Assembly (NCBI GenBank): GCA_902625895.1 | Contig: CACODD010000003.1 | Location: forward strand, 1-62,099 | Origin: an uncultured Alphaproteobacteria bacterium | Lineage (GTDB): Bacteria; Pseudomonadota; Alphaproteobacteria; Methylaequorales; Methylaequoraceae | DNA: 62,099 nt | Reading direction: 5' to 3' | Shown here: in pieces, positions 1,558 through 21,077 of the stretch | Layout of the letters: each line of letters opens with the position of its first letter | Position numbering within the stretch: position 1 is the first letter of the stretch | Notes under the pieces: model-generated | Database searches by the model: none | Seen by the model: the letters and a program-made list of their open reading frames with translations, nothing else | Told to the model about the DNA's origin: nothing | Translations under genes and position numbers: made by a program

Positions 1558-1637
1558 AGTTTCTAAACAATAGAGCTTTTAGCTAAATAAATTTCCTTTT
1601 AGGTCGTAAATATAATATTAACAGTGGTTCGTGGAAT

Positions 1638-4331: not shown

Positions 4332-4383
4332 GATGTTATATGTTTATTTTGAAGGTAAGAGAGTGATATTATAAAATAATATT

Positions 4384-5973
4384 ATGAAGTTTTGGTTTCA
4401 CATATTAAAAGAAAGTAACTCTCTAAATACTATTCTTTTATTGACTTTTTTTATCACTATAATGGGTTTATTAAGCCCAATCTTTATCATTCACATTTTT
4501 AATAGATATATCGCATTTGGCCTTCAGGGAACATTGTTTTTTCTATTATCAGGTGCTCTTTTAGTTGCAGTATTCGAGTATATATTTAGGAATATTAGGA
4601 GTAAAATCTTATGTGAACTTCTCATAAATCCAATAAAATTTTTTAAATTAGACCTAATCAAAACATTTTTTGAGAGAGAAAATAAAACCTCAAAAAGAAA
4701 TTTTGTTGAAATAATTGATTTCAACAATAATTTTTTTCAATTCTTATCACCTAAAGTTCAGTCAAATATTCTCGACTCAATTTTTGCAACTTTGATTATT
4801 ATTATTCTTTTTTTTCTGGACCTATTATTAGCAACAATTTTTTTAATTCTTGTTATTATTTTCTTGTTGTTGCAACAAAGATTAATAAAAAATAAAAATC
4901 TAAACCTGGAAAAATTAAATTTATCTAAGAATGATAAATTAATAATTAAAGAGATTGGAACTAATCAAGAGCTTTTAAAATCTACTTTAGCATTTAAATA
5001 TTCTGGATATTATCTAGAAAATTACTTAAATAAAAAATTAAAAATTGACTCTTCAACTGCAAATTTTGATGCTCAACAAATATCCACAACCAGTTTTTTT
5101 GTTTTGCTATCATCAATTATTACAATTGGATTTGGGAGTATCTTTGTCGTGAATGGGAATCTTTCTATTGGTAGCCTGATAGGATTCAACATATTTGCTA
5201 CTCGAGCTTTGGGTACAATTTCATCGGCACAAAATTCATATTCTATCATTGAGAGAACAAATATGTATCTTAATGATTGCCAAGATTTTTTCAAAAACTC
5301 TAAAAATAGAGTTGAGGGTATGCAACTAAGTAAAATTATAGGGAATTATAAACTTAAAAATATCAACTATTCTTTCGATAATGATAATAAGTATATAATT
5401 AAAAATTTCTCTGCTAATTTTAATTCTTCAGAAATTTCAGTTATTAGCGGAGCGAATGGCTCCGGAAAGACCACAATTGCAAAATTGCTCATGGGACTAA
5501 TTAATCCAGAATCTGGAGATATTTTATTAGATGAAACTAATTTGGAGAAACTATCATTGCAATGGTATAAGAATAAAGTAGCTTATATACCTGAAGATGT
5601 TGAAGTGTTAAATTCATCAATTTTAAATAATATTTTAATATCCAACCCTGATCTGAATGAACAAGAGGTTAGTAGACTGCTTCAAAATGTTGGATTAGAT
5701 AAAGAGTTAAAAAAATCAGATTTAACAATAACTGATTCTATAAATAAAAATTATTCAAAAGGGATTTTAAAAAAAATACATATTGCACGGTCGATTTCAA
5801 AAACCTATCAAGTTTATATTTTTGATGATCCGTTATTATATCTAGATAAATTAGGTAAAAATATGGTGCTGAAATTGATAGCCTCATTAAAAAGAGCTGG
5901 AAAAACCGTAATTTGTTTTTCAGAAGATTCTGAAATTATTAAACTAAGTGATAAACAAACTAATTTAGGGTGA
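4384..5973 (+). CDS. T1SS-type ABC exporter (TMD+NBD, no N-terminal peptidase/CLD domain) with non-canonical NBD motifs
   Basis: Hydrophobic N-terminal half. Walker A is GANGSGKTT. The signature position reads YSKGI, Walker B reads IFDDP and the H-loop position reads SED. It sits directly upstream of the HlyD gene. Confidence 0.8.
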   Translation: MKFWFHILKESNSLNTILLLTFFITIMGLLSPIFIIHIFNRYIAFGLQGTLFFLLSGALLVAVFEYIFRNIRSKILCELLINPIKFFKLDLIKTFFERENKTSKRNFVEIIDFNNNFFQFLSPKVQSNILDSIFATLIIIILFFLDLLLATIFLILVIIFLLLQQRLIKNKNLNLEKLNLSKNDKLIIKEIGTNQELLKSTLAFKYSGYYLENYLNKKLKIDSSTANFDAQQISTTSFFVLLSSIITIGFGSIFVVNGNLSIGSLIGFNIFATRALGTISSAQNSYSIIERTNMYLNDCQDFFKNSKNRVEGMQLSKIIGNYKLKNINYSFDNDNKYIIKNFSANFNSSEISVISGANGSGKTTIAKLLMGLINPESGDILLDETNLEKLSLQWYKNKVAYIPEDVEVLNSSILNNILISNPDLNEQEVSRLLQNVGLDKELKKSDLTITDSINKNYSKGILKKIHIARSISKTYQVYIFDDPLLYLDKLGKNMVLKLIASLKRAGKTVICFSEDSEIIKLSDKQTNLG

Positions 5974-5977
5974 AAAG

Positions 5978-7249
5978 ATGACAGAGAAATGGGTAAAATG
6001 GAATTTATTTAAAAACGATGAAAAACCAAAAAACGTTATTAGTAAAAGACTTAAAGTATCATTAATTCTTTTCTCACTTATTTTTTTGCTACTAGTGAAT
6101 TTAAAAATTATTGAGGTATTAAGCTTAGCTGACGGAAAAATAATACCCCAAGGAAGAATGAAGTATGTACAACATTTGGAAGGTGGAATAGTTGAAGAAA
6201 TATTAATTAGTGAAGGTGAAAAGGTTGAGATAAATCAACCTTTGGTTATTTTATCGAAAGAAAAAGCAAGCTCTGAATTTGAGGAGATTAACTCAAGACT
6301 TAAATCAATTGATCTGTCGATACTAAGAGTTAATTCTGAAATAAATTCTAATAATTCAATAGAAATTCCTGAAAATAAAAATGACTTATTTGATGAGGAA
6401 TTAGTAAAATCTGAAAATGAACTTTTTCAAAGTAGAAGAAAAGCAATCAACTCTGAAATAAAGTCAAAGAAAGCAAGTATTGATAAAGCTAATAAAAATC
6501 TCAAAAATTTAAAAAAAAGATTAACAATCGTAAAAGAACAAGAAGATATCAGTCAAAAATTATTAGAAGTCGAGGCAACAAATAGGTTAAAGCATTTAGA
6601 AATTTTAAGAGAAAGGCAAGAGGTTGAAGGAAGTATCGACGAACAACAATCTATAATTGATTTGAGCAAGAATGACTTAGAAAAAGTGCAAAACAATTAT
6701 ATAGAAGAATTAAATATCGAGTTGTCACAGTACAAAAAAGAAAAAGAGGAACTTAATAAAAGAATTCAGAAATATTCAGACAGCTTAAATAGAACCGTTT
6801 TAAAAAGCCCTGTATCTGGAACAGTAAAACTTGTGTCAGTAAATTCTAAGGGAGCTATAGTCGCTCCTGGCGTGACTGTTGTTGAAATTGTACCTGAAAA
6901 TGAAAAACTAATAATTGAGGCAAAATTACCTTTATCAGAAATTGGATACGTAAAAAAAAATCTTGAAGCAAAAATTAGACTGAATACACCTGAAGGCTCT
7001 AGGTTTAGATCAATAAAAGGGAAAGTTGTATTTGTAGGCGCTGACAGAATTTCTGGTAAAGATGAAGAGGGTTTTTATTTAGTCAAGGTGGAAACCTCTG
7101 AAAACTCTTTTGCACGAAAAAACGAGGAATATAAACTTTTGTCTGGTGTTCCAGTTATGGTTGGTATTATAACTGGTAAAAGAAGTTTTATGGATTATTT
7201 CTTAACGCCTTTTATAACCGGTGCAAGCTTTGCATTATCTGAAAGGTAA
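5978..7249 (+). CDS. HlyD-family type I secretion membrane fusion (periplasmic adaptor) protein
   Basis: N-terminal TM segment, GKIIPQGR..VQHLEGGIV lipoyl-like start, long coiled-coil region, and C-terminal SGTV..PG..V.IVP and GKRS..DYFL motifs typical of T1SS adaptors. Confidence 0.85.
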   Translation: MTEKWVKWNLFKNDEKPKNVISKRLKVSLILFSLIFLLLVNLKIIEVLSLADGKIIPQGRMKYVQHLEGGIVEEILISEGEKVEINQPLVILSKEKASSEFEEINSRLKSIDLSILRVNSEINSNNSIEIPENKNDLFDEELVKSENELFQSRRKAINSEIKSKKASIDKANKNLKNLKKRLTIVKEQEDISQKLLEVEATNRLKHLEILRERQEVEGSIDEQQSIIDLSKNDLEKVQNNYIEELNIELSQYKKEKEELNKRIQKYSDSLNRTVLKSPVSGTVKLVSVNSKGAIVAPGVTVVEIVPENEKLIIEAKLPLSEIGYVKKNLEAKIRLNTPEGSRFRSIKGKVVFVGADRISGKDEEGFYLVKVETSENSFARKNEEYKLLSGVPVMVGIITGKRSFMDYFLTPFITGASFALSER

Positions 7250-7250
7250 A

Positions 7251-7550
7251 TTATTTTACAGAAGATTTGGAAATTGTTTCAGATTTGAAAATTACGCCGT
7301 TTTTTTGAGAATTGAGTTTTAAATGTTTGTAAAGCTCATCAAAAATAACATTTCCTTTTCTTTCTTTGACAATGAGAGTAAGAATGTCTGCTTCACTAGC
7401 ATCACCAAATTGCTGTATGTCAAACATATCTGTGGCTCTACCATTAGCATAACCGACTGAAATAACGTCTGAGTTTTCAGAAAACTTTTTAACAACTTTT
7501 TGTCCTAAACCTTTTTTTATTAAGCCACCAATTTCAACAAACTTTGACAT
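7251..7550 (-). CDS. Small hypothetical protein, possibly a second divergent PII-like partner
   Basis: 99-aa ORF 2 nt downstream of the PII-like gene. The C-terminal ILTLIV..GVIFKSE pattern loosely resembles the PII beta-alpha-beta fold. The functional call is weak. Confidence 0.45.
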   Translation of the reverse strand: MSKFVEIGGLIKKGLGQKVVKKFSENSDVISVGYANGRATDMFDIQQFGDASEADILTLIVKERKGNVIFDELYKHLKLNSQKNGVIFKSETISKSSVK

Positions 7551-7552
7551 AT

Positions 7553-7909
7553 TTATCCTCCAGCTCGTTTAATGACATCTTTAGGTATATATGTCGCAAC
7601 TCTGTCAAGTTTAACCATCCACATTATGCCTTTACCAGGTGTATCAAGATTTCCGGCTAAATACATTGATTCAAAGACTCTGTTCGATTGTTCTTTAGAA
7701 ACTATAATTCTTATTATTTCTTTTTGTTCATCTATAGTTACTCCAAGAAGTCCCATTCTATCCCTAATGCCTGTACCCCTGGCATAATTAATTGTTGCAC
7801 CTTGGGCTCCAACACTGGTGGCAGCATCTATGATTTTGTCGGCTAGACCACTTTCAACAACACAAGTGATTAAAAAAACGTCTGTTAAATAAGTGATATC
7901 TCTGGCCAT
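7553..7909 (-). CDS. PII-like (GlnB-fold) signal transduction protein
   Basis: 118 aa. The layout (FLITCVVESGLADKIIDAA..GAQGATI..ARG.G, ..IIRIIVS......VFESM...) matches PII-family proteins that accompany DUF1538 membrane proteins. Confidence 0.65.
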   Translation of the reverse strand: MARDITYLTDVFLITCVVESGLADKIIDAATSVGAQGATINYARGTGIRDRMGLLGVTIDEQKEIIRIIVSKEQSNRVFESMYLAGNLDTPGKGIMWMVKLDRVATYIPKDVIKRAGG

Positions 7910-7925: not shown

Positions 7926-9623
7926 TTATTTTTTTTGTTTAAATTGTATATATAGTCCCATTAGGAGTACAGCAAGAATTGGACAAATACTTGCCATTGA
8001 TAGAATACCAAAACCTTCAGTGGCGGATACAGCATTTCCTAGACCCAGACCCATAGCCAGAACAAGTGGTACGGTTACCGGGCCGGTTGTGACTCCAGCG
8101 CTGTCCCAGGCGACATTAACAAATTCTTCAGTTGAAAAGTAAGTTAAAATAATTGCAAGAAGATAAAGTGGTATTAAAACGGTTGCTAAGTCAAAAGCAA
8201 ATACAATTTTTCCAACACCTAAGGCTATCCCAAATGCAACACCCCCGGCAACGCTATACATTAACATTGACTTTTTGAAAGCACCATTGGTAAGCTCTTG
8301 AACTGTCAAACCAAGGGCATTAAGTGCTGGCTCAGCAAGTGTTGCTCCAAATCCTAAGAGCCAAGCAAAAAGAATTACTATAGTTAAACCCAATAATTCG
8401 TTATAAATTGGTGATACTTCACTTATTGGGACTTCCATAAAGGCAGCAGGAAGATTGGTTCCAGCTTGTCCACCTATAGCTCCTAAACCATATGTGAGTC
8501 CTATATTGAAGACACACATCCCAACAATGGACAAAGTTAACCCATAAGTTGTTATCATGTTGTTAGGAAGTTTAGATCTAAGGATTATAAAAAGCACAAT
8601 CATTAAAAATATCACAAGTGGAAGTATCGCTCGAACTCCTCCAATAATTTCAACAAACGGGGTTTGTGACCATTTAGAAACCTCTCCTATGGTCATATCT
8701 GAAACCATACTAGTCGAAGCAATTATTTCCTCAACTGAGATTGTCTGAGAAACATGTATAGCGAGAATCAGAACAGCTATAATTGGAAATAATGAAGCCA
8801 TTGTAACGACGCCGAAACCAGAAAGAGATGAATCTCCTTTACCAGCTGATGCTGCAATTCCAATACCTAGTGATAGCACAAGAGGTACAGTAACTGGTCC
8901 AGTTGTAACAGCACCACAATCCCAAGCTAATCCGAGAATAGTTCTTAAATCAGGATTACTCCATACATATGCAGTAAGAATTATTGTTGGTGTAAGAGCT
9001 GCATAAATCATAGGTTTTAGAGACCAACCTTTGACAAACCTAATCGTTCCAATTATGGCTGCTAGTCCAACACCAGCACCGACCATTACAACTAAGGTTT
9101 CACTTCTATTATTTAGTATCTCATACAGATACGGTGCGTCCTGAGGGTTTATTGATGAACCAAATGCTTTGAGTGCTCCAATAGCTGGTTCCGCATAAGT
9201 TACCCCCACCCCAAGTATTCCAATAATAATTAAAACAAGAACCATTGGTGCTTTTTTTGGTAATGTATCACCAATTACATTGCCAAATGGCATTAAACCG
9301 GTTTTAAGACCTTCCATAAAAATTGCTAGGCCTATTATTACTGCAATTAATCCTAGACAAATTGTTGTCGCTGAAGAGATTGGTTGTCTTAAAATTAAAA
9401 GTTGAAACAGAAATAAATATGCTGCAAGTGGAACAACAGCTTTAATTTGTTCCATAACTCTAGAAATCGTGTAAGGTGCTAATAAAGTAAGTGCCTTGGC
9501 AGGTGATACTTTTATTTTCTGAGGCTTTAGTGATTTTCCTTTAGCTGCCTTCGGCGTAAGAAGGTTATAACTTAAAGATTTATGATTTATCTCTGATTCG
9601 TGAATGTAATCGGAATATTTCAT
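7926..9623 (-). CDS. Polytopic membrane protein with internal duplication (two DUF1538-like halves)
   Basis: The motif AWDCGAVTTGPVTVPLVLSLGIG recurs as AWDSAGVTTGPVTVPLVLAMGLG about 270 aa later. The protein has many TM segments. Confidence 0.7.
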   Translation of the reverse strand: MKYSDYIHESEINHKSLSYNLLTPKAAKGKSLKPQKIKVSPAKALTLLAPYTISRVMEQIKAVVPLAAYLFLFQLLILRQPISSATTICLGLIAVIIGLAIFMEGLKTGLMPFGNVIGDTLPKKAPMVLVLIIIGILGVGVTYAEPAIGALKAFGSSINPQDAPYLYEILNNRSETLVVMVGAGVGLAAIIGTIRFVKGWSLKPMIYAALTPTIILTAYVWSNPDLRTILGLAWDCGAVTTGPVTVPLVLSLGIGIAASAGKGDSSLSGFGVVTMASLFPIIAVLILAIHVSQTISVEEIIASTSMVSDMTIGEVSKWSQTPFVEIIGGVRAILPLVIFLMIVLFIILRSKLPNNMITTYGLTLSIVGMCVFNIGLTYGLGAIGGQAGTNLPAAFMEVPISEVSPIYNELLGLTIVILFAWLLGFGATLAEPALNALGLTVQELTNGAFKKSMLMYSVAGGVAFGIALGVGKIVFAFDLATVLIPLYLLAIILTYFSTEEFVNVAWDSAGVTTGPVTVPLVLAMGLGLGNAVSATEGFGILSMASICPILAVLLMGLYIQFKQKK

Positions 9624-9660: not shown

Positions 9661-10128
9661 TTATTCAACATGACTTGTTGACCTCTCTAATCTGTAAAGA
9701 ATTTGTTTTGTTATTTTTTTTATTATTTGATTCTCTGACTCTATTATCTGATCTATTTCATCATGTGAATAAAGTACATTTTGAAACTCATTTCTTTTAG
9801 CAAGTTCTTTACATAAATTTAAAATTACCTTTTGGGCGGCCTTTGAACCAGAATTAATTAGCTCATCAAGATTTTCTTTACTAATAGATATTAACTCTGT
9901 AGATTGAGCTGATGTAATAGTTGCACTTCTGTTTTGTTTTAATATCAAAGCCATTTCACCAAAAACCTCTCCATCTCTCATAGATCCAACTTTTTTTCCG
10001 TCAACTAGTACATCAAGGACTCCAGAAACTATCATGTATGCTTTATCACCTTTGTCTCCTTGATTAAAAAGCGTCTCACCTTCTAACATCAAAATTTTTG
10101 TTGTTTTTCCATGACTAACTTCTTTCAA
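9661..10128 (-). CDS. Stand-alone cyclic-nucleotide-binding domain protein
   Basis: The phosphate-binding cassette FGEMALILKQNRSATITS is present. A short helical tail (QILYRLE) follows and there is no HTH. Confidence 0.8.
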   Translation of the reverse strand: MKEVSHGKTTKILMLEGETLFNQGDKGDKAYMIVSGVLDVLVDGKKVGSMRDGEVFGEMALILKQNRSATITSAQSTELISISKENLDELINSGSKAAQKVILNLCKELAKRNEFQNVLYSHDEIDQIIESENQIIKKITKQILYRLERSTSHVE

Positions 10129-10565
10129 GAAAATATCCTTTGAGATAATCTATAGTGAATCTGTAAAGCTAAAGCTCTTATTACGTTAGGAGAGTCCTTA
10201 GTTAGCTTTACAAGATCGGCTTTGGTAACTGGAAGTTTTTGGTTATCGGATTTTCCTAATTCCTTTGACATTTCATTAATTACTTTATGAAGATCTATGT
10301 TGGAGGATAATAAAATAGCTTCCAACGCCTTTCTTTTTATTTCAACGATTTCACTTGGTACAATAGCTTTTATACTCGCAGTTCTATTTTCATTAAGAAT
10401 TAAAGACAATTCTCCAAAGATTTCACCTGTTTCAATTTTCCCTATTTTTTTTCCTTCAATTTCTGCAACTAATCCACCTGAGACAACTAAAAAGGCTGTT
10501 TCTCCTTTATCTCCCTCTCGAACAATATATTGATCTGGAAGAACTCTTATCTTTTTTAAACTCAT
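10125..10565 (-). CDS. Stand-alone cyclic-nucleotide-binding domain protein (paralog of the next gene)
   Basis: FGELSLILNENRTASIKA cassette and a QIHYRLS tail. It overlaps the downstream paralog by 4 nt (ATGA). Confidence 0.8.
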   Translation of the reverse strand: MSLKKIRVLPDQYIVREGDKGETAFLVVSGGLVAEIEGKKIGKIETGEIFGELSLILNENRTASIKAIVPSEIVEIKRKALEAILLSSNIDLHKVINEMSKELGKSDNQKLPVTKADLVKLTKDSPNVIRALALQIHYRLSQRIFS

Positions 10566-10578
10566 TTAAACCTTTTTT

Positions 10579-12954
10579 TTATTTAGAAGTTGCAACAAAA
10601 ACACCATCCCAATCTTTTGGGGGAGGATGCTTTTTATATTCATTAATTCTTTCTGTCATCATTTCATAGTAATCTTTCATTAAACTTTTACAAAGTGTTT
10701 TTGCCTGAGTCATTTCCTCGATAGCATCTTTCCAATTTTGATTAAAATAGAGATTTAAAACATTTTTATGCTTTTTTTCAAGATTTTTGAAATCAACACT
10801 ATTTTTAAAACTTGGATCACCAAGCAAACAAAAAATTGATACAGCTTCTTTTTTTCCTTTTACTGCTAACATATCAAGTTGGAGCGTAGCATAAGTATCT
10901 TTAACAGCATCGTTTGTTTCTTGCCCAATAACTGTTTTAACTCCATAACCTTTTGATTGACCTTCAAGACGTGATGCTAGATTGACTGCGTCTCCCAATA
11001 CTGAATAGTCAAATCTTTGATCTGACCCCATATTTCCAACAACACAACCTCCAGTATTTAGTCCAATTCCAATTTTCAATTCCAAAAAATCTTTATTTTC
11101 TGACTTTGCTTCCTGTTCTCTTATATCGTTAAGTTCCTTAAGTGCTTTGTGCATGCTCAATGCTGCTTCACAAGAAACTTGCTCGTGTTTATCGACATCT
11201 ATAGGTGCATTCCAAAAAGCCATAATACAATCACCCATATATTTATCTATTGTTCCATTTTTATTTATGATTTCATTTGTAAGAGGAGTTAAAAATCTAT
11301 TTATAAGTTTTGTAAGGCCTTGAGGATCGGATTTAAAAGCTTCTGAAATTGTTGTAAAACCTCTTACATCACAAAAAAGAAATGTCATTTTTTTTGTTTC
11401 TCCACCCAACACTAATTTATCAGGATCTTCAGCTAATTGCTCTACTAAAGCAGGGGATAGATATTGAGAAAATGCACCCCTTATTTGTTTTTTCTCATTG
11501 GCATCTCGTAAGTAGTTTGCAAAGGTGTTACTAAAATAAATTACAAAAGTTGTTACACCTGCAAAGGTTGGATCAAATAAAGTTTTATGTTCAGTAAATA
11601 ACCTTACACTAATATAAAATGCAGAACTTATTATGGTTACAAGTAATGAAATATTTACAATTGGACCAAACCTTAATGCAGACACTGTAATAAATAATGC
11701 AAGCAAAATTGTAAAGAGTGCTTCATAAAATTTCATATTTGCACCAGATTTCAAAAAAGGTGATCCTGAAATTTTAACTTTGTTTTTTTCAATTATTGCT
11801 TCTTCTTCACTTAAACCTTTTTTTAATGCTTCTTTATAAACTTTTTCAGAATTTTTTGTAGATGTATAATAAAGAATTGCTGAAATGACTGTATCAATAA
11901 GATTTGCATGAATTTCAACACCTGGCATTCTTTCATCGACTGGAGTGGGTCTAATATCCTTTAATCCAGTGGCCGATGTGCCTAATATACCAAGTTTTCC
12001 TTGTAATCTATCTTTGCCAACCCTTCCTTTAATTATATCCACTGCACTTACATAATATCTTGATTTACCTTCTTTAACTTTTCCAGCATCTGAATCACCA
12101 TAATAAATCCACACTCTACCATTCTCATCAGTCGGAATAGCAGCATTACCAATAGCTTTAGTTTGAATTATTATTTCTTTAATTCCCGTCAAACCTGTCC
12201 TAGTGGCAATACTATTTCCTTGAAACGCAACCCTTATCATATCAAGTCCAAGAGTTGGTCTGATTTCACCTGCAACATTTGATATTAAGGGTACTCTTCT
12301 AATAATTCCATCTGGTTCCTGTGCAACTGAAACTGTACCAGATCCAGAGGCAGCTTTTTCAAACTCTGTCACATTAGCAAGTAATCCAGGATAAGATATC
12401 AACCATTCCTTTGGATTTTTACCTTTGCCAACAAAAACTTTTACAGATGAATCGTTTATATCATTTCTGTTTGCATCACCTTCTACATCCAAGCCAGAGT
12501 GCCCGATTACTACAGGAAAGTCACTCATAGCTTCAGTGGCTAAAAACTCATTAGAAGGAAGTTCACTTAATAATTTTGCAATAGTTGGATTTCGTTTTTC
12601 TAAATCTTGAGAAATTAAGTCAGGTGAAGTTCTGTCTTTTTCTGCAAAGAGAACATCTAGACCTAAAACAAGCATACCTGACTCTTTAGATTTTTTAAAA
12701 AGATCAGCAAGTACAGTTCTTGGCCATGGCCATTGACCGATTTCTCTTAGAGATTTTTCGTCAATATCTACAATTACGGAGTAAGTTTGACCGTCTGTAG
12801 ATCTTGGAAATTTTTTTTGAAGAACATCAAAATATTTAAGTCGTAGAACTTCTACTATTTCAGGATCAGCTATTCGAATCAAACCAAAAAGAATTGCCAT
12901 TACTAAAGAGGCAATAGTAACAATAAGTCTAAAACTTAGCTTTAATTTAATCAT
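10579..12954 (-). CDS. CHASE2-domain class III adenylate/guanylate cyclase (Lys/Asp pair suggests adenylate cyclase)
   Basis: N-terminal TM, a large periplasmic-type domain, then 3 TM segments. The catalytic domain reads FLFCDVRGFT..DKYMGDCIMAFWNAP..FDYSVLGDAVNLASRLE. Confidence 0.9.
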   Translation of the reverse strand: MIKLKLSFRLIVTIASLVMAILFGLIRIADPEIVEVLRLKYFDVLQKKFPRSTDGQTYSVIVDIDEKSLREIGQWPWPRTVLADLFKKSKESGMLVLGLDVLFAEKDRTSPDLISQDLEKRNPTIAKLLSELPSNEFLATEAMSDFPVVIGHSGLDVEGDANRNDINDSSVKVFVGKGKNPKEWLISYPGLLANVTEFEKAASGSGTVSVAQEPDGIIRRVPLISNVAGEIRPTLGLDMIRVAFQGNSIATRTGLTGIKEIIIQTKAIGNAAIPTDENGRVWIYYGDSDAGKVKEGKSRYYVSAVDIIKGRVGKDRLQGKLGILGTSATGLKDIRPTPVDERMPGVEIHANLIDTVISAILYYTSTKNSEKVYKEALKKGLSEEEAIIEKNKVKISGSPFLKSGANMKFYEALFTILLALFITVSALRFGPIVNISLLVTIISSAFYISVRLFTEHKTLFDPTFAGVTTFVIYFSNTFANYLRDANEKKQIRGAFSQYLSPALVEQLAEDPDKLVLGGETKKMTFLFCDVRGFTTISEAFKSDPQGLTKLINRFLTPLTNEIINKNGTIDKYMGDCIMAFWNAPIDVDKHEQVSCEAALSMHKALKELNDIREQEAKSENKDFLELKIGIGLNTGGCVVGNMGSDQRFDYSVLGDAVNLASRLEGQSKGYGVKTVIGQETNDAVKDTYATLQLDMLAVKGKKEAVSIFCLLGDPSFKNSVDFKNLEKKHKNVLNLYFNQNWKDAIEEMTQAKTLCKSLMKDYYEMMTERINEYKKHPPPKDWDGVFVATSK

Positions 12955-14675
12955 GGTTCTGCAAAACTATTACCAAGAGTTCTTATGAGTGGATAAATAA
13001 AATACGTAATTAATCTTCTTTGCCCAACTCTAAACTTTCCTGAAACTTTCATTCCTGGCATTAAATTAAATCCTGGAGGAATATCTTTTAACTCATTTTC
13101 TGTTATTTGAGCCCTAGCTCTATAAAAATTTCCAGGTTTTCCATCGACATCTTTATCAATTGTGTCAGCAGAAACATAAATAAGCTTTCCTTTTAATTCA
13201 CCATGTTTTTGTGCTGGAAGAGCATTAAGTTGAATTTTAACAGATGTATCCGGAATTAGTTTACTAATATCAGAAGGGTCAACATCAAAAACAGTTAATA
13301 ACTCCACACCTGTTGGTACCAATGTTACAACACTTTTACCTGGTGTTATTACTGCTCCAGGGTATAGAGAATGAAGGTCTAGAATCATTCCGTCAGAAGG
13401 CGCTCTGACCACGACATCAGTTTGTTGTCTTTCAAGTTTTTTAACATCCTCTTGTAGCGACATTCTTTGATCTTCTAACCCAACAAGCTCATCGTTTATT
13501 CCTCCAAAAAATTGGCTGTTATATTCTTTTCTATTAGATTTTAATTCGCTTAGTTTATTGCTAGTTTTTGTAAATTCTTTTTCTAAAGATAACCTTTTAT
13601 TTTTTTCAGCTAAAACTTGTGACTCTGCTACAAGATCAAGTTCAAACAACTCCAACTTTGAATCTTCCAGCTGTTTTTGTATATCAAGTTGTTCCTTGAT
13701 AAACTTTAAATCGTCTTCAGTGGAACCTATTTGTTGATCTAATGAAGCAATCTTTGCTAAATATTGGTCTTTTTTATCTTTAAAGATTCGACTTTGTCTT
13801 TCGTCATTTGGATTTGCAACCGAAACATTATTTCTTAACAATGACTGCTTTCTTAGTCTATCAATTTTTGAATTTACAACTGAAAGCTGATAATCAAGTT
13901 TCATTTTATCGGCTCTTTGTAGTGTAGCATCGAAAGTTACGAGTGGGTCTCCTTGATTTACACTCTCGCCTTTTTTTACAAGTATTTCTTTGACAACAGA
14001 ATTATAGTTTGATTGTACCTCTACATTTGGGACAACGGTGGTAATCTTTCCAGAAGCAGAAATTGTAGTGTCAATTTCCGAAATAGTGCCCCAAGTAATT
14101 AAAAATAAAATAAGGAAACCAAATGAATAGACTGACATTTTTACTGAACTTGGTACCTGCTTTGTTTTAATTCTATCAATGTCGTCATCAAATTCATCTA
14201 ATAATTCACTCATCATTTTTTTTTTTGATCTATTTTCTTTTTCTTCCTCAGTTAAAACTTCTTCTTGATCTTTGTTATTCTCATTTTCATTTCCAGATTC
14301 AAAAGCATCCACAGATAATTTTTCGTTTGCATTTCTGGCATAGCTTGCAAGTTGCTGCATCATATTGAAAGCTGTTTGTGGAGAGTTTTTGAGATATCCT
14401 AGTAAAGCATTTTGATCAATTTCTTTTACCGTTGTCTCAACTGTCGCTCTTGCCATTGCACTTCTTGGTTGTTTGTCAATTAATGCCATTTCTCCAAACA
14501 ACGCACCTTTTTCAAGTATTGACAGAGTTACGTATTCGTCACCGTTGAATTTGCATACCTCTATTTTCCCTTTTACTATTTGATAGGCATAGTCACCAAC
14601 TTCACCTTCTCTAAAAAGCACATCACCAGCAGCTAAATTTCTAACAGCGGGTTGAATATTTTTTTTTTCAGCCAT
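12951..14675 (-). CDS. HlyD-family T1SS adaptor with N-terminal cyclic-nucleotide-binding domain
   Basis: Residues 1-125 form a cNMP domain (FGEMALIDKQPRSAMARA). An acidic linker and a TM follow. The rest has HlyD features (GKITTVVPN, coiled coil, GMILDL..PGAVITPG, RRLITYFIYP). Confidence 0.85.
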   Translation of the reverse strand: MAEKKNIQPAVRNLAAGDVLFREGEVGDYAYQIVKGKIEVCKFNGDEYVTLSILEKGALFGEMALIDKQPRSAMARATVETTVKEIDQNALLGYLKNSPQTAFNMMQQLASYARNANEKLSVDAFESGNENENNKDQEEVLTEEEKENRSKKKMMSELLDEFDDDIDRIKTKQVPSSVKMSVYSFGFLILFLITWGTISEIDTTISASGKITTVVPNVEVQSNYNSVVKEILVKKGESVNQGDPLVTFDATLQRADKMKLDYQLSVVNSKIDRLRKQSLLRNNVSVANPNDERQSRIFKDKKDQYLAKIASLDQQIGSTEDDLKFIKEQLDIQKQLEDSKLELFELDLVAESQVLAEKNKRLSLEKEFTKTSNKLSELKSNRKEYNSQFFGGINDELVGLEDQRMSLQEDVKKLERQQTDVVVRAPSDGMILDLHSLYPGAVITPGKSVVTLVPTGVELLTVFDVDPSDISKLIPDTSVKIQLNALPAQKHGELKGKLIYVSADTIDKDVDGKPGNFYRARAQITENELKDIPPGFNLMPGMKVSGKFRVGQRRLITYFIYPLIRTLGNSFAEP

Positions 14676-14680
14676 TTAAA

Positions 14681-16852
14681 TTACCCGGCCTTTTTTAAAG
14701 ATTTAATTTTGTTTTCAACACCTAAAATAGACATTTGCTTATTATACGTCTTACCAAAATAGCCTGAGGTCTGTCTAAGTTCTTCAAAAGAACCTTGTTG
14801 AGATATTTTTCCTTTTTCAAGTACAAAGATTTTATTACAAAGTCGAAGGTGCCAAACTCTGTTTGACACGATAATAATCGTTCTACCAAGAGCAATATCT
14901 GATAATGCATCATATAATTTTATTTCACTATCAACGTCAAAACCTGTGAAAGCATCATCTAGTATCATGATACGAGGGTTTCTAATAAGTGCTCTAGCGA
15001 TTGCTAGTTTCTGTCTTAAACCAGTTGCTAGGTTTGTAGCGTTTTCTTCAAGAAATGTTTCATATCCATCGGGATAAGACTCTATTTCTTCATGCGCAAA
15101 AACTTTTTTGGCAGCCCACGTTATCCTGTCCATAGAAGAATTTGGCATTGCACTTGCTATTGTTTCTCTTATTGTTCCAGGAAAAAAATAACTATCTGTT
15201 CCGACCAATGAAACCTGTGATCTTACATGACTAAGGTCCAGTAAACGAAGATCTATATTATCAAGGGCTACGATGCCAGCTTGCGGTCTATACAAACCTT
15301 GAATCAGTTTTGCAATGGTACTTTTCCCACAGCCACTTTTACCAGTGATACCAATTATTTGTCTTGGATTAATTTCAATATCAACATCATTTAATACTTT
15401 TGTATTATCGTCGTAGCCGAACTCAACATTTTTAAAAGTAACCTGTCCCATTAGTTGAGGTTTTTGGCCCTTAACAGTTGTTTCGGAGTTTGCATCCACT
15501 ATTCCTGATATGATCTGAAGAGACTGAACTAATTTTGTTATTTCTGTTTTAAGAGTAACTAGATCAATTATTGGTTTTGAAACTCTGCCGGCTAGCATAT
15601 TAAAACCTACTAAAATTCCAGCTGAAAGAGAACCAGAAAATACAAGATGCACCCCAACAAAAATGACCATCGCTGTCATTAGTTGATTTATGGTTGATGA
15701 AATGTTGTTTAAAACTGCTGACTTTTTTTGCATTTCTTCATTTGCAATAATATAATTAGCTTCCAAATCTCTCCACTGATCTTTTAAATTAGGCTCAAGA
15801 GCAAGTCCCTTTACATTCTCAATTCCGTTAACAGCAACAGAAATAAATTCTTGTCTTTTTGATTCAGCCTTACTTAAACCAGCGAGTGAGTCTCTTTGTT
15901 TTTTCGAGTAAAACATTGATGCTAAAGCTCCTAAAATACTGAATGAAAACACAACAATAAATAGTAATGGACTATAAAAAAATAAAATTGGAACAAAAAC
16001 AAGTAAACTAATTGAGTCTAGTGCTGTTGAGAAAACTTTTTGAGTCAGAAGGCTTTTGATCTGAGATATTTGACCTGTGAATCTCAAAAAAGTTGCTGAT
16101 TCTTTGTGAAACCTTTGCATTGGTAAAGCAATTAATTTTTCAAAAACTTTAACTGAAAGTTTGGCTTCAACTTTTTGTGAGAAAAAATCAAGAAGATATG
16201 ATTTTAAATACCCAAGTATTCCATTAAATACATACGCAACAACTACACCTGAAGTTATAACATATAAAGTTGAATAAGCTTCATAGTTTACAACCTTATC
16301 CAAAACTAACATCATGAAAACAGCCGGTATAACTGCGAAAATGTTTAAAATCAAAGCTACGATTACAACTTGAACCATAACAGATTTGTTCCTAAATGAC
16401 TCGCCAATTAACCATCCAATTTTTAATTCGCTGTCTTCTTCGAATTTTTTCAGTTTAGCTTTAAGAAGTATTACTTCTCCGTTCCAGCCTTTTTTTAATT
16501 CTTTTAAATTAATTTGTTGAGGTTTAGGACTGGTAACACCAGTATCAAGGCATAAAACTGACTTATCATCATCTTTTTCACCTTGAATAACTCTTAAAGC
16601 TATTATGTATCTTCCATTTTTAAGTCTTAAGATTTGTTGTTTTTTAGATAAGAGCTTTACTAGTTCTTTATCGCTAATTTTGGTTGCTTTTGCTTTTAAA
16701 TCAAAGGATTGAGCTAGTTCACACATTTCAGTGGTTCTAAGCTCTCTATCTTCAATTTGAAATCTTTCTGGAATATCATTTGGACCAATATGAACCCCTA
16801 GTTGTCTTGCAACTAGAATAATTGATTTTTGAGAACCTCGCATCGCTTCCAT
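14681..16852 (-). CDS. HlyB-like T1SS ABC exporter with N-terminal C39-like domain (no catalytic Cys) and non-canonical NBD motifs
   Basis: The N-terminus aligns by eye with the HlyB CLD (GPNDIPERF, LKAKATKISDKEL, GRYIIALRV). Walker A is GKSGCGKST. The signature reads LATGL, Walker B reads ILDDA and the H-loop reads SNR. Confidence 0.9.
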   Translation of the reverse strand: MEAMRGSQKSIILVARQLGVHIGPNDIPERFQIEDRELRTTEMCELAQSFDLKAKATKISDKELVKLLSKKQQILRLKNGRYIIALRVIQGEKDDDKSVLCLDTGVTSPKPQQINLKELKKGWNGEVILLKAKLKKFEEDSELKIGWLIGESFRNKSVMVQVVIVALILNIFAVIPAVFMMLVLDKVVNYEAYSTLYVITSGVVVAYVFNGILGYLKSYLLDFFSQKVEAKLSVKVFEKLIALPMQRFHKESATFLRFTGQISQIKSLLTQKVFSTALDSISLLVFVPILFFYSPLLFIVVFSFSILGALASMFYSKKQRDSLAGLSKAESKRQEFISVAVNGIENVKGLALEPNLKDQWRDLEANYIIANEEMQKKSAVLNNISSTINQLMTAMVIFVGVHLVFSGSLSAGILVGFNMLAGRVSKPIIDLVTLKTEITKLVQSLQIISGIVDANSETTVKGQKPQLMGQVTFKNVEFGYDDNTKVLNDVDIEINPRQIIGITGKSGCGKSTIAKLIQGLYRPQAGIVALDNIDLRLLDLSHVRSQVSLVGTDSYFFPGTIRETIASAMPNSSMDRITWAAKKVFAHEEIESYPDGYETFLEENATNLATGLRQKLAIARALIRNPRIMILDDAFTGFDVDSEIKLYDALSDIALGRTIIIVSNRVWHLRLCNKIFVLEKGKISQQGSFEELRQTSGYFGKTYNKQMSILGVENKIKSLKKAG

Positions 16853-16884
16853 GAGGATATAATATATTAATTTTTAATTTAATC

Positions 16885-16917
16885 AAAAAAAAAACCCCCT
16901 TAGAAACTCTAAGAGGG
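16885..16917 (-). terminator. Rho-independent terminator between the P/G/M/D-rich gene and the ABC exporter gene
   Basis: Minus strand: CCCTCTTAG-AGTTT-CTAAGGGGG (9-bp stem with one G-U) followed by T10. Confidence 0.75.
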
Positions 16918-16941
16918 TTTTTTATCTATAGAAGTATAGGT

Positions 16942-18102
16942 TTAAACTACCTCACCACCGTCATTTGGGTCGTCTGGTGGCGGAGGTACATCGGCTGGCA
17001 TATCACCAGGCATTGGCCCAGGATCTCCAGGAGGAGGCCCTTCTGGACCTTGATGTGCTCCTGCATCGTCCATGTGAGTATGCATATCACCCATTCCATC
17101 TGGAGGAGGCATATCACCTGGACCACCAGGTCCGCCATCCATTGGCCCTGGTTGACCCATCGGATCACCTGGAGGCATATCACCTGGTGGCGGTCCACCA
17201 GCTGGCCCACCTTCACCAAATAATGGATCTGGCCCTTCACCACCAGGAGGTGGCGGAGGCATTCCGTCTCCATCCATATCCATGCCTGGAGGTGGTCCGT
17301 CAGGTCCCATTGTCCCTGGTCCCATATCAGGAGGAGGAGTTCCTGGTCCGAATTCTGGTCCACCTGCCATATCACCTGGAGGAGGTCCATCTGGTCCTGG
17401 CCCAAAACCGCCCTCTGGATTAGGTGGTTCTCCCATAGGAGGTCCCATTGGTTCTCCATCTGGTCCAAAAGCTGGCCCATCTGGTTGAGGTCCGCCTGCC
17501 ATATCACCTGGAGGAGGTCCGTCTGGTCCCATTCCGCCTGGTCCCATATCACCTGGAGGAGGTCCGTCTGGTCCCATTCCACCTGGTCCCATCTCACCTG
17601 GAGGAGGTCCATCTGGTCCCATTCCAGCTGGTCCCATATCAGTCATTGGTCCTGGTTCCCATGCACCTGGCATAGCACCAGGATCGAATTCTGGTCCACC
17701 TGGAAAATCACCATAAGGTGGTGCTCCATCCATCATTGGACCAAAATCCTCTGGTGGTGGAGGGAAATCGCCTGCCATGTCCATACAAGGCATATCACCG
17801 GGAAACTCTGCCATATGAAAATCTAACGCACCGCCAACAGCATCAAATGCATCCATTGGAGGTGAATCAGGATTTGCTGCCATATGAGCATCAAAAGCAC
17901 CCTGTGCAACGTCTGCGATATTATCCATCATTTCTTTTGGCATACCAGCATCCGCCATAAAATTCATTGCTGCTCCCATACCTTCTCCGAAGGCTGCACT
18001 AGGGTCAGCAGCGAAGTCAGCCGCTTGAAATGGACCCATAGCTGCATCGCCAGCGGCTTCAGCAAAAGCTTCCATTTCAGGTGGCAAAACAAATTCTGCC
18101 AT
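16942..18102 (-). CDS. Pro/Gly/Met/Asp-rich low-complexity protein (no signal peptide, no RTX repeats); possible T1SS cargo
   Basis: 386-aa ORF with AAGGA 8 nt upstream of the ATG. The N-terminal about 110 aa are non-repetitive. The rest is built from GPDGPPPGDMGPGGM-type repeats. A terminator follows immediately. Confidence 0.75.
   Translation of the reverse strand: MAEFVLPPEMEAFAEAAGDAAMGPFQAADFAADPSAAFGEGMGAAMNFMADAGMPKEMMDNIADVAQGAFDAHMAANPDSPPMDAFDAVGGALDFHMAEFPGDMPCMDMAGDFPPPPEDFGPMMDGAPPYGDFPGGPEFDPGAMPGAWEPGPMTDMGPAGMGPDGPPPGEMGPGGMGPDGPPPGDMGPGGMGPDGPPPGDMAGGPQPDGPAFGPDGEPMGPPMGEPPNPEGGFGPGPDGPPPGDMAGGPEFGPGTPPPDMGPGTMGPDGPPPGMDMDGDGMPPPPPGGEGPDPLFGEGGPAGGPPPGDMPPGDPMGQPGPMDGGPGGPGDMPPPDGMGDMHTHMDDAGAHQGPEGPPPGDPGPMPGDMPADVPPPPDDPNDGGEVV
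17495..17641 (-). repeat. About three tandem 45-bp units encoding GGMGPDGPPPGDMGP
   Basis: Units at 17495-17539, 17540-17584 and 17585-17629 are near-identical. A partial fourth follows, and dispersed copies occur elsewhere in the ORF. Confidence 0.85.
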
Positions 18103-18215
18103 AATAAATTCCTTTATTAAATTGTAAGATTAAATTGTGTTAATACTTTAAAAAGTCGATACAGTCTAGTTTAACAATATTTTATTTTTTTATTTTAAGC
18201 AAGCTTTAATTAATT

Positions 18216-19541
18216 TTACTTTTCAATTGTTTCGAAATTGAGAATTCCGCATAGTTTTAATAATTCGAAGGATGAAATAATAAGTTGATATTGTGCGTTC
18301 ACTAAATTTGATTCAGAATTTGTTAGTTCTTTTTGTGCATCTAAAATTTCTAATGTTGTTCTGGTACCAACACTTGCTTCTTTAGTTACTCCCTCAACTG
18401 CCATTAAATTTGACTCAACCGAAACCTCAAGAGAATCTATACTTGATTTTGAACTTTCTATTTTCTTCCATGCCGAATTAATTTGAAATTGTAAGTCAAG
18501 TTTTTTTGTCTCAATTGATTTAATGACGGTGAGAGCAGAATCTTTGGATTTTTCTAAATTCAAAAAATTATGTCCTTTGTTAAATAATGGAACTGTAACA
18601 TTTGCAGTTACTGAGAATGAATCTGTTCTTTCAACCGTTCTTGAGGAATCAAGTGATTTTCCTACTGAACCAGACAAAGAAAATTCTGGTGCAAAATTTA
18701 AATTATTTTTTCTTACATCCAATTTTGAGTTCATAAGTTGTAATTTTAATTTTCTATAATCTGGGTTCTTTTCTAAGCCTGTTTTTATTGAATCGTCCAA
18801 AGATTTTGGAAGTTTTGGTATTTGACCAAATTTTAACCAATCTTTTGGATTGGCGTCGACAATTTGGGCATTATTGGAATCAAACCATTTAATATCCGGA
18901 TCTCTTCCGACAATTGTTTTAAAATCAGAAATTGAAATTTCTAAGTTATTTTCAGCCTCTATTCTCTTTGAAGTAGCACCTGCTAATCTTGCTTTAGCCT
19001 GAAAAACGTCAGTTTTAGTAACATCTTTAAATTCGAATCGCTTTTCTGCAGCATTTAGTTTTTTTTCAAGAGTTTCTTCGTTCCTTTTTGAAACATCTAA
19101 AAGAAAATAATCCTTTAGAACAGTATAATAGGCTTTACTAGCTTTAAATAAAACATCTTGGACTGTTGCGTAAAAGGTTAACTTTGCGATGTTCACGTTA
19201 TTTTTAGCTTGCTTGAAATTTATAGCCTTTGTGTAACCTAAAGGTTGAGATAAATCTAAGTCGAACGTAGTTGGGTTGATAGCGCTATCATTAATTCGAG
19301 ATGTATCAGGGTTGCTTTTTGAAATTTTCCTTCCTTGTGATGCAGATAAATCAAGAGATGGTAGAAAATCTGTTTTTGAAATTTTTAAATCTTTTTCTGA
19401 AATTTTCAGTTCTGTTTTACTTTTTTCAATGTCGGGATAAAACTTATATGCATCTTTTAAAACATCGGAGAGTTCTTCAGAAATTGAAATAATAGGAAAA
19501 AATATTGATGCTAAGATAGCCAGATTAAGTTTGGATTTCAC
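18216..19541 (-). CDS. tolC: TolC-family outer membrane efflux/secretion protein
   Basis: Signal peptide, two-repeat architecture, typical N-terminal L.D.L..AY..YPDI and LPSLDLSAS motifs, 441 aa. Confidence 0.85.
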   Translation of the reverse strand: MKSKLNLAILASIFFPIISISEELSDVLKDAYKFYPDIEKSKTELKISEKDLKISKTDFLPSLDLSASQGRKISKSNPDTSRINDSAINPTTFDLDLSQPLGYTKAINFKQAKNNVNIAKLTFYATVQDVLFKASKAYYTVLKDYFLLDVSKRNEETLEKKLNAAEKRFEFKDVTKTDVFQAKARLAGATSKRIEAENNLEISISDFKTIVGRDPDIKWFDSNNAQIVDANPKDWLKFGQIPKLPKSLDDSIKTGLEKNPDYRKLKLQLMNSKLDVRKNNLNFAPEFSLSGSVGKSLDSSRTVERTDSFSVTANVTVPLFNKGHNFLNLEKSKDSALTVIKSIETKKLDLQFQINSAWKKIESSKSSIDSLEVSVESNLMAVEGVTKEASVGTRTTLEILDAQKELTNSESNLVNAQYQLIISSFELLKLCGILNFETIEK

Positions 19542-19667: not shown

Positions 19668-19744
<77 letters not shown>

Positions 19745-19790: not shown

Positions 19791-20399
19791 ATGTTTAAAA
19801 ATTATTTTGTTGCAATTTTTATCAATGTAATTGGATTTTCCGCTTCTGCAAACGATTATTTTAAAGCTCTAGAGCTTTTTAATAAAAAAATGATAGAACA
19901 AGCTATAATTCACTTTAAGAAAGTTGCTGAAGATGAAAATAATGAAAAAAGAAGTGATGCTATGTTTAATATTGCTTTGATTTATGACAATGGTTTTGGG
20001 ATACAAACTGATAAAACTAGAGCACTTTATTATTACGAATCAGCTTCACAACTATCAAATAAGTATGCTTTATTTAATTTAGGTTGGATGTACTATAATG
20101 GAGAAAACGTTAACAAAGACGTTTTCAAAGCATTCGAATTATATAAAATGTCTTCAGACTTCGGTCATCCGAGAGCTATGTATAATTTAGCTAATATGCA
20201 TTTTACAGGAACGGGAACTGTTAAAGATTTAAAAATGGCTTATAAATTATTTTTGAAATCTAAGATGCATGGAATCAAAGAAAGTGAATATTTTATTGAA
20301 CAAATTGCAATTTCTTTAAAACCTGAGGAGTTAACTCTACTTAATAAAGAGTTTGAATCATTGATAGAAAAAAAGATTGTTTTACCTCCTATAAATTAA
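19791..20399 (+). CDS. Sel1-repeat (TPR-like) secreted protein
   Basis: Signal peptide plus repeated A...Y..ga..G...A.fnLg.mY..G motifs (NIALIYDNGFG, NLGWMYYNGENV, NLANMHFTGTG). Confidence 0.8.
   Translation: MFKNYFVAIFINVIGFSASANDYFKALELFNKKMIEQAIIHFKKVAEDENNEKRSDAMFNIALIYDNGFGIQTDKTRALYYYESASQLSNKYALFNLGWMYYNGENVNKDVFKAFELYKMSSDFGHPRAMYNLANMHFTGTGTVKDLKMAYKLFLKSKMHGIKESEYFIEQIAISLKPEELTLLNKEFESLIEKKIVLPPIN

Positions 20400-21000: not shown

Positions 21001-21077
<77 letters not shown>

Follow-up and report, generated by a model that had tools for sequence, protein, structure and literature searches.

Can a second messenger act directly on the machinery of a type I secretion system (T1SS)? 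The question is raised by a cluster of seven minus-strand genes, running from position 19541 to position 9661 in a stretch of 62,099 nucleotides from an uncultured alphaproteobacterium (contig CACODD010000003.1; the whole stretch analyzed, 62 kb, is hereafter called the window). The cluster codes for the three components of a T1SS, the HlyD-type adaptor of which carries a cyclic nucleotide-binding (CNB) domain, and the adaptor gene overlaps that of an adenylate cyclase. T1SS are usually treated as constitutive conduits under transcriptional control, and an adaptor with its own second-messenger sensor would, like a valve, put a one-step exporter under direct post-translational control. The reading that we favor, with a probability of roughly 0.55, is that of a dedicated, cAMP-gated T1SS formed by the TolC-type channel, the HlyB-like ABC transporter and the CNB-HlyD adaptor, for which we infer ligand, switch direction, cargo and cue from sequence. 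The features of the cluster, in the order of transcription, are:

18216..19541, minus strand: TolC-family outer-membrane channel, 441 aa (Pfam OEP, 7.7e-57)
16942..18102, minus strand: Met/Pro/Gly/Asp-rich acidic protein (hereafter Met-rich protein), 386 aa (no Pfam or NCBIfam family)
16889..16923, minus strand: intrinsic terminator with a 16-pair stem and a T-run, between the Met-rich and ABC genes
14681..16852, minus strand: HlyB-like T1SS ABC transporter, 723 aa, with an N-terminal C39-like domain (Pfam)
12951..14675, minus strand: HlyD-family periplasmic adaptor, 574 aa, with an N-terminal cytoplasmic CNB domain (Pfam, TIGR01843)
10579..12954, minus strand: membrane class III adenylate cyclase (activity predicted), 791 aa, with a periplasmic CHASE2 domain; 4-nt overlap with the adaptor gene
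10125..10565, minus strand: stand-alone CNB protein 1, 146 aa (Pfam cNMP_binding, 2.5e-15)
9661..10128, minus strand: stand-alone CNB protein 2, 155 aa from a TTG or 142 aa from an ATG start (Pfam, 6.7e-18)

Domains were called with Pfam, and subfamilies with NCBIfam models and their curated cut-offs. The seven open reading frames (ORFs) match exactly, coordinates included, those of an initial annotation made from the sequence alone, and the Pfam search, a check asked for beforehand, recovered every domain named there: the TolC-like channel, the HlyB-like transporter with its C39-like domain (ABC_membrane, 1.4e-32; ABC_tran, 1e-26; Peptidase_C39, a weak 1e-05), the CHASE2 class III cyclase (CHASE2, 2.7e-46; Guanylate_cyc, 2e-19) and the two stand-alone proteins. 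The Pro/Gly/Met/Asp-rich gene was likewise found as described, with the hairpin terminator directly after it, and the intergenic gaps, given as -4 to about 115 nt, measure -4 to 113 nt, the 4-nt overlaps being those of the adaptor/cyclase pair and of the pair encoding the two small CNB proteins. In a profile search the whole 62 kb holds a single OEP gene, a single cyclase and three CNB domains, all of them in this cluster.

The CNB domain of the adaptor

The N-terminus of the adaptor is a true CNB domain, and binding of a cyclic nucleotide (cNMP) to it is predicted. Pfam cNMP_binding matches residues 12-97 (1.3e-19; 70.4 bits against a cut-off of 27.5), HlyD_3 is matched as well, and the protein scores 222.6 bits against TIGR01843, the T1SS HlyD subfamily, over the cut-off of 208.65. 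Matches in the PDB are to HlyD (8dck, 1.4e-26, and 5c21) and to the CNB domains of PKG, PKA and CRP. In an AF2 model built with the family alignment (mean pLDDT 85.6), a CNB beta-barrel with a long C-helix (residues 10-120) is connected by a disordered acidic linker (123-164) to the single transmembrane (TM) helix (176-198) and lies on the cytoplasmic side of it, and the periplasmic part, composed of a lipoyl domain, a long alpha-hairpin and a beta-barrel, is canonical. A fold search with the whole model returned periplasmic adaptors only and adds no evidence on the CNB domain. Pfam, the PDB matches and the model nevertheless agree on the fold that the initial annotation had placed on the adaptor. 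The phosphate-binding cassette FGE[ML].LI....R[ST]A, which it had assigned to the three cNMP domains of the cluster, is also borne out by direct reading (FGEMALIDKQPRSA, FGELSLILNENRTA and FGEMALILKQNRSA), and all three domains score over the Pfam cut-off. Just ahead of the TM helix the short cytoplasmic segment of the HlyD type is kept (family consensus 'EF.PD...IE....P'), so the adaptor is complete and the CNB domain is an extra part at its N-terminus.

This architecture defines a family. Since a first homologue search was filled by relatives more than 82% identical, a library of 1.8 billion cluster representatives (50% identity) and a profile without the window clade were used. About 35 proteins of these clusters align from approximately residue 10 to the last residue of the adaptor, with 24-39% identity, and in an alignment of 36 representatives F21, E23, G24, G36, G61, E62, R71, A73 and A77 are invariant or nearly so. 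Matches in genomes belong to SAR116, Magnetococcales, Magnetovibrio, Rhodospirillaceae, Nisaea and UBA4588, and hundreds of adaptor clusters (90% identity) were found in marine metagenomes; the family is thus abundant in the ocean and present in several major bacterioplankton lineages. Public copies of the adaptor are labeled 'HlyD family' or 'hypothetical' protein, one of them hypothetical only. T1SS and CHASE2 cyclases are well known, NCBIfam has a model for the link between CNB domains and bacteriocin-type ABC exporters (TIGR03896), and HetC has been studied; in the literature searched, no publication was found on a CNB-bearing T1SS adaptor, in agreement with the initial annotation, which knew of no characterized T1SS with an adaptor-borne sensor and a cyclase inside the operon, nor on cyclase-T1SS operons or on a Met-rich family free of Lys and Arg.

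The closest precedents are HetC of Nostoc PCC 7120 and the NHLP/TIGR03896 exporters, in which a CNB-type domain is likewise found on or beside an ABC/HlyD export system. There, however, the sensor is part of the ABC protein or of a distinct protein with two CNB domains, whereas here it resides on the adaptor; moreover, these systems combine an active C39 peptidase with a leader-peptide cargo, and the C39-like domain of the window is dead. The CNB-type domain of HetC is essential in vivo, and in vitro it bound ppGpp, GTP and GDP, and not cAMP (PMC10986499), which means that a CNB fold alone does not prove the ligand. It is conceivable, although in our view unlikely, that the adaptor domain binds such another ligand (ppGpp, GTP), or none at all, serving as an oligomerization or docking module, and that the neighboring cyclase signals to the small CNB proteins and to other targets instead of the secretion machine. 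In addition to HetC, most of the distant CNB-HlyD loci would fit such a role, since they show no cyclase within 10 kb (L011, L013, L015, L016 and L084-L087; L numbers denote individual loci), and cAMP, if it is the ligand, must often come from a cyclase encoded elsewhere. On the other hand, Gly61, Glu62, Arg71 and Ala73, the residues expected to contact ribose and phosphate, are almost invariant in the family, the best PDB matches of the adaptor are true cNMP binders, and the overlap of cyclase and adaptor genes, 4 nt in the window, is also found in L022.

The conserved triad and its presumed cargo

In order to define which genes accompany the adaptor, its genome loci were found with a 5-sequence alignment, ORFs were called in the fetched loci and compared with profiles of the window proteins, and four distant members were read with Pfam annotation. 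The adaptor is 99% identical to genes of the single-cell genomes AG-349-G20 and AG-337-K15 ('uncultured Alphaproteobacteria bacterium') and 74-76% identical to those of 'Rickettsiales bacterium' assemblies. In all relatives, from 99% to 73% adaptor identity, the complete gene order is kept (TolC, Met-rich protein, ABC, CNB-HlyD, CHASE2 cyclase, CNB protein or proteins, DUF1538, PII, PII-like), and in the relatives of the clade the convergent HlyD, ABC and FecR/RTX genes come after the PII-like gene. Over this range the gene order of the initial annotation holds, but in distant loci the conserved core is a triad of Met-rich protein, ABC transporter with a C39-like domain and CNB-HlyD. In the fetched loci the ABC gene with the C39-like domain always precedes the CNB-HlyD gene, and the ABC gene has a gene for a Met-rich acidic protein immediately ahead of it in about 18 of the 19 loci having upstream sequence, among them L006, L009, L011, L013, L014, L015, L017, L019, L020, L022, L032, L084, L085 and L087, as well as L086, where it was found by a motif profile.

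The ABC transporter of the triad gives a pointer to the kind of exporter. Its best NCBIfam model is TIGR01846 (type_I_sec_HlyB), with 491.9 bits against a cut-off of 725.55. No Cys occurs ahead of residue 44, and hence the C39-like domain is not a peptidase; the only PDB match of this domain is the inactive C39-like domain of HlyB (3zua). A dead domain that resembles only that of HlyB points to a HlyB-type and not to a bacteriocin-type system. A bacteriocin (PCAT or NHLP) system was considered and rejected, given the lack of a catalytic Cys and the scores under the cut-offs: the proteins of the window fall far under those of TIGR03794/96/97 and TIGR03896, unlike NHLP-type bacteriocin exporters, and the ABC protein falls far under those of TIGR01193 and TIGR03796. 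With the NHLP-type models the adaptor scores 53.8 against a cut-off of 156.2 and the ABC protein 330 against 853 and 267 against 709, and the CNB proteins reach 27-33 with the accessory model TIGR03896, the cut-off of which is 161. Furthermore, the operon holds a single ABC gene, and not the paired peptidase and non-peptidase ABC proteins of the NHLP type.

The haemolysin T1SS of E. coli (HlyB-HlyD-TolC, substrate HlyA) is a close likeness, with a dead C39-like domain on the ABC protein, an HlyD adaptor and a TolC-type channel. A substrate gene, a terminator and then the genes for ABC protein and adaptor form the classic hlyA/hlyB-hlyD layout, and here as well an acidic, presumed substrate is encoded directly upstream, with a terminator ahead of the ABC gene. 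The differences are that the adaptor of the window bears an extra CNB domain of 130 residues and a disordered linker of 40, that the presumed substrate is devoid of RTX repeats, and that genes for a cyclase and for CNB proteins belong to the cluster.

The Met-rich protein of the window contains 67 Asp plus Glu, one Lys plus Arg and 43 Met residues, and its gene three 45-nt tandem repeats. Its homologues, of 186-574 aa, are composed of 10-23% Met, with abundant Pro, Gly, Asp and Ala, 26-97 acidic residues, and zero or one Lys plus Arg each, L087 (three) being the exception. Neither the window protein nor the homologues matched a family in Pfam or NCBIfam. By BLASTP with composition correction these proteins form three subgroups, with no match to 260 shuffled controls, and a 30-residue profile, 'GMDAFN.AI.NG..P.EA', built from SAR116 and UBA4588 copies, places Met-rich-type ORFs at the top of 11,684 ORFs, with relatives from the window clade among its matches. 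Their C-termini are of conserved types ('...PPPPDDPNDGGEVV', '...PPPEDDGGEVI', '...DPSAGMG'). The Met-rich proteins of the window and of L007 (6860-7732) are only 55% identical, although the flanking genes are 97-99% identical, and among strains (window, L007 and L010 3-482) identity is 55-69% and length varies, 386 against 290 aa; yet the C-terminal 40 residues of the window and L007 proteins differ at one position only. An exposed protein whose C-terminal export signal is under constraint would be expected to show just this combination of fast divergence and a constant C-terminus. The exact Met-rich sequence of the window is absent from a collection of 15 billion proteins in which all its neighbors are present.

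Gene position, composition and conserved C-terminus make the Met-rich protein the best candidate and most likely the cargo of this T1SS. A different assignment, to which we give little credit, is that the CNB-HlyD system exports large FecR/RTX proteins or a small molecule, for instance cAMP itself with the CNB domain as substrate site, and that the Met-rich protein is a cytoplasmic chaperone, plug or regulator. TolC-dependent efflux of cAMP has been reported in E. coli. The absence of RTX repeats from the Met-rich protein would also agree with such an assignment, as would L013 and L084, in which giant FecR proteins are encoded approximately 3 kb further downstream than the triad, no second T1SS being visible there. 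Nevertheless, the RTX/FecR proteins of the window have an ABC and HlyD pair of their own directly downstream, and the Met-rich gene is the most constant neighbor, almost always directly upstream of the ABC gene. In addition, its product diverges between near-identical strains as fast as an exposed protein would, with a nearly unchanged end of 40 residues on a remainder that is about 55% identical.

What such a cargo would do once exported is a matter of speculation. Met, His and Cys pairs spaced by 2-4 residues, as in copper-type Mets motifs, were counted and compared with 500 shuffles; they are significantly enriched in the proteins of L015, L020 and L022, with motifs such as 'ADHMGNMPPDAMGGM' and 'GDMTGC', whereas the counts for the window protein (7, 6 and 8, with about 6 +/- 2 in the shuffles) show no enrichment. 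Metal binding is thus a speculative option, beside that of a polyanionic surface coat, and for the window copy the spacing does not support it. Since Lys and Arg are nearly absent, trypsin would be expected to yield no usable peptides and standard metaproteomics to miss these proteins; an extracellular protein common in marine bacteria, of an unannotated class and extreme composition, may therefore have gone unnoticed. In L084 there are two copies of 316 aa (2010-2960 and 6712-7662), with the same composition and the same N- and C-terminal stretches, one encoded directly after the DUF1538, PII and PII-like genes and the other directly before the ABC gene, and a histidine kinase and response-regulator pair is encoded between the two.

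The cyclase, its FecR partner and the proposed gating

The enzyme that would supply the ligand is a class III adenylate cyclase, its activity being predicted from conserved motifs. Its best PDB match is CyaB of P. aeruginosa (1.3e-32), nearly all of the listed matches are adenylate cyclases, and the alignment with CyaB (3r5g) shows that FCDVRGFT, DKYMGD and VNLASRLE, the motifs of the metal Asp, the Lys and the Asn/Arg, are kept.

In other genomes the cyclase is placed in several ways. In SAR116 L022 it lies directly downstream of the adaptor gene and overlaps it, and in L030 (Bradyrhizobiaceae), L033 and L092 it directly follows HlyD genes without a CNB domain; in L020 it stands upstream, with DUF1538/PII and with the parts in another order, and in L009 it is 4 kb away. 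The linkage claimed by the initial annotation therefore recurs (L022, L030, L033, L092), but in distant loci the cyclase is an optional neighbor. A chance juxtaposition of T1SS and cAMP genes in a compact genome can be regarded as very improbable: streamlined marine genomes do pack unrelated genes tightly, and there is a terminator inside the cluster, but a CHASE2 cyclase follows HlyD in at least four unrelated lineages with rearranged neighbors, the adaptor itself bears a CNB domain, and all three CNB domains and the only cyclase of the 62 kb are concentrated here.

A survey from the cyclase side, with a profile of three distant members and six matches looked up, covered eight distant loci in all. 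The surveyed cyclases share a C-terminal extension ending in 'DWDGV..ATSK', and consequently form one subfamily. In all eight (L022, L033 and L088-L093) the cyclase has a FecR-domain protein as its immediate neighbor, a CNB-domain protein is present in seven, in six of them beside an exporter, and an exporter lies nearby in six of the eight; in five of these six, the exporter or a small neighboring protein bears a CNB domain. The exporter is a CNB-HlyD T1SS in L022, and a TolC-ABC-HlyD set with a cNMP-EAL protein and a giant FecR protein in L033 and L092. L090 (1-8890, a SAR116 MED-G04 contig) codes for two ABC exporters of about 1,015 and 1,033 aa with N-terminal cNMP_binding and Peptidase_C39 domains, with an HlyD gene between them and TolC next, directly upstream of the CHASE2 cyclase/FecR pair; here the cyclase subfamily is coupled to another kind of CNB-bearing exporter. 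The pair is adjoined in L091 (1969-7705) and L093 (772-7606) by a transporter of the MMPL/Patched type to which a cNMP_binding domain is fused, and these loci also hold two small CNB proteins, a metallophosphoesterase and a TP_0789-like protein. The pairing of CHASE2 and FecR next to varied CNB-bearing exporters offers a handle on what CHASE2 senses. In L013 (14493-21743) and L084 (15222-21761), lineages without a nearby cyclase, giant proteins of over 2,100 aa that have a FecR domain at the N-terminus and extend past the locus end are encoded some 3 kb downstream of the triad.

In the window the only FecR domain is found in a second T1SS locus that converges on the cluster (1-7249), with the following features:

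91..1557, plus strand: second RTX protein, 488 aa (Pfam HemolysinCabind, 3.9e-05)
1638..4331, plus strand: RTX protein with an N-terminal FecR domain, 897 aa (HemolysinCabind, 1.1e-16; FecR, 2.6e-06)
4384..7249, plus strand: second T1SS pair, an ABC protein of 529 aa without a C39-like domain and an HlyD protein of 423 aa without a CNB domain (ABC_tran, HlyD_3)

Against a FecR profile the 897-aa protein scores 1.5e-50, and it is likely both the extracytoplasmic partner of the CHASE2 cyclase and a substrate of the convergent T1SS. The pair of this locus has no outer-membrane protein gene of its own and is syntenic in relatives. As the sole FecR protein of the window is encoded with a T1SS lacking a channel gene, the two loci are probably one functional unit with a shared TolC; this sharing had been suggested before, and a single TolC gene in the window fits it.

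Pairing of CHASE2 with FecR has precedents. The Burkholderia 'BiofilmReg' operon of a CHASE2 histidine kinase includes a LysM-FecR protein (PMC5192318), and in S. meliloti, where CyaD1 is a CHASE2 cyclase, the FecR-domain protein SMc02177 is among the targets of the cAMP regulator Clr (PMC5498481). The CHASE2 adenylate cyclase architecture and the CHASE2/FecR pairing of the window resemble those of the S. meliloti CyaD1/CyaD2/CyaK-Clr system with SMc02177. However, the output of cAMP in S. meliloti is the transcription factor Clr, whereas the receivers here would be a secretion adaptor and small CNB proteins; no Crp-like DNA-binding protein is encoded in the cluster, and the FecR domain forms the N-terminal part of an RTX protein. 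In the LapBCE/LapD/LapG system, what becomes of a T1SS substrate is decided post-translationally by a nucleotide second messenger, as is proposed here. There, however, c-di-GMP does not act on the transport machinery but, by way of a distinct receptor and a periplasmic protease, on the LapA adhesin retained at the cell surface; no Lap-type parts were found in the window.

We hypothesize that the CHASE2 adenylate cyclase senses a periplasmic or extracellular cue, probably together with the FecR-domain protein, here the RTX protein of the convergent T1SS that would use the same TolC, and that it makes cAMP locally, from a gene overlapping that of the adaptor. The N-terminus of HlyD is cytoplasmic, and in the haemolysin system it is needed for substrate engagement and for the recruitment of TolC; a CNB domain in this position would give an assembly of the 8dck type six sensors, situated beneath its three ABC dimers. 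Binding of cAMP to the six CNB domains of the adaptor ring would switch export on or off after translation, the cargo being an intrinsically disordered Met/Pro/Gly/Asp-rich polyanion nearly devoid of Lys and Arg. Locally, cAMP may also be received by the pair of small stand-alone CNB proteins, as co-regulators or buffers, and perhaps by the PII-like proteins associated with the adjacent DUF1538 transporter.

Several observations weigh against this mechanism. Besides the ligands of HetC and the many CNB-HlyD loci with no cyclase at hand, both the ABC protein and the TolC protein stay under the NCBIfam cut-offs of their T1SS subfamilies, the latter marginally (222.5 bits with TIGR01844, cut-off 225.15). 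A strong terminator parts the Met-rich gene from the ABC gene, and a promoter-like site, TTGATT-16-TATTAT at 16886-16859, follows it. Finally, the Met-rich protein has no RTX repeats in Pfam and no recognizable secretion signal, no signal predictor having been applied. A more far-reaching version of the gating mechanism, which we consider a long shot, is that the CHASE2 cyclase and the secreted FecR protein gate, by means of cAMP on the adaptor, the release of Met-rich polyanions which either bind soft metals of the Cu(I) type in seawater or form a fast-evolving coat, and that this is widespread in marine Alphaproteobacteria. If this were true, metal-binding Met-rich proteins would contribute to the unidentified strong copper ligands of the ocean.

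Small CNB proteins, downstream genes and surroundings of the cluster

CNB protein 1 is present in all relatives of the clade. CNB protein 2, the best PDB matches of which are the CNB domains of PKG and PKA (2.8e-30), starts with TTG, and some database entries place the start at an ATG 13 codons further on. It is a paralogue confined to the nearest relatives; L004-L006 carry one small CNB gene, which indicates that the second copy is a recent duplicate. Outside the CNB domain the two proteins share a C-terminal helix motif, 'ALALQIHYRLSQR' and 'ITKQILYRLERS', that matched no known family and could be a docking element.

The initial annotation had closed the unit at 9661. Its seven genes stand, but the same-strand run goes on with gaps of 37, 16 and 2 nt through three more genes:

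7926..9623, minus strand: fused DUF1538 (UmpA+UmpB-like) membrane transporter, 565 aa (DUF1538, 1.3e-107), 37 nt downstream
7553..7909, minus strand: PII-like signaling protein, 118 aa (Pfam P-II, 3.1e-07)
7251..7550, minus strand: second, divergent PII-like protein, 99 aa (no Pfam family; PII profile built from the loci, 7.9e-19)

The transcription unit probably continues through these genes to 7251. The only characterized DUF1538 proteins form UmpAB, a Na+(Li+,K+)/H+ antiporter of Halomonas zhaodongensis (PMC5484666). The 565-aa protein resembles it as a fusion of UmpA-like and UmpB-like halves, both recognized by NCBIfam under the equivalog cut-offs, and differs in being paired with two PII-like proteins in a T1SS/cyclase neighborhood. 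The 118-aa protein scores 31.1 bits with Pfam P-II (cut-off 25) and its PDB matches to PII proteins are weak; the 99-aa protein matches only the profiles built from the loci, and in relatives its gene always comes after the PII gene. This trio is found near the triad in four lineages, on the same strand downstream in the window, divergent in Magnetovibrio (L013) and upstream in L020 and L084, and its persistence despite rearrangement argues for a functional link.

This link invites the reading that the cyclase and the CNB proteins mainly regulate the DUF1538 transporter and its PII-like proteins, or serve a general cAMP circuit, and that the T1SS is co-located through one envelope-stress or ion-homeostasis regulon, with no direct gating of export. 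The same strand and the short gaps (2-37 nt) speak for it, as do the recurrence of the trio in the four lineages and the position of the cyclase directly before DUF1538 in L020; some PII-like proteins, e.g. SbtB, are cAMP sensors. We nevertheless find it improbable as the main function, because it leaves unexplained both the CNB domain of the adaptor itself and the occurrence of the cyclase subfamily beside exporters with fused CNB domains (L090, L091 and L093). Moreover, regulation of the transporter and gating of export by cAMP are not mutually exclusive.

Only 1 nt separates the ends of the two convergent operons, the plus-strand HlyD gene having its stop at 7249 and the minus-strand 99-aa gene at 7251, and no terminator-like site was called between them. 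An Rfam scan of the window returned tRNAs only, and no riboswitch. At the other end of the cluster a tRNA-Pro(TGG) gene (19668-19744, plus strand) is located between the TolC gene and a divergent Sel1-repeat gene (19791-20399), so that a cluster coding for an unusually Pro-rich protein lies beside a tRNA-Pro gene; a tRNA-Arg(TCT) gene is found at 21001-21077. The GC content rises to 0.42-0.44 at 1-4000 and 16000-18000, against a genome value of about 0.30, exactly over the RTX and Met/Pro/Gly-rich genes. Their Gly, Pro and Ala codons would raise GC, and a foreign origin need not be invoked.

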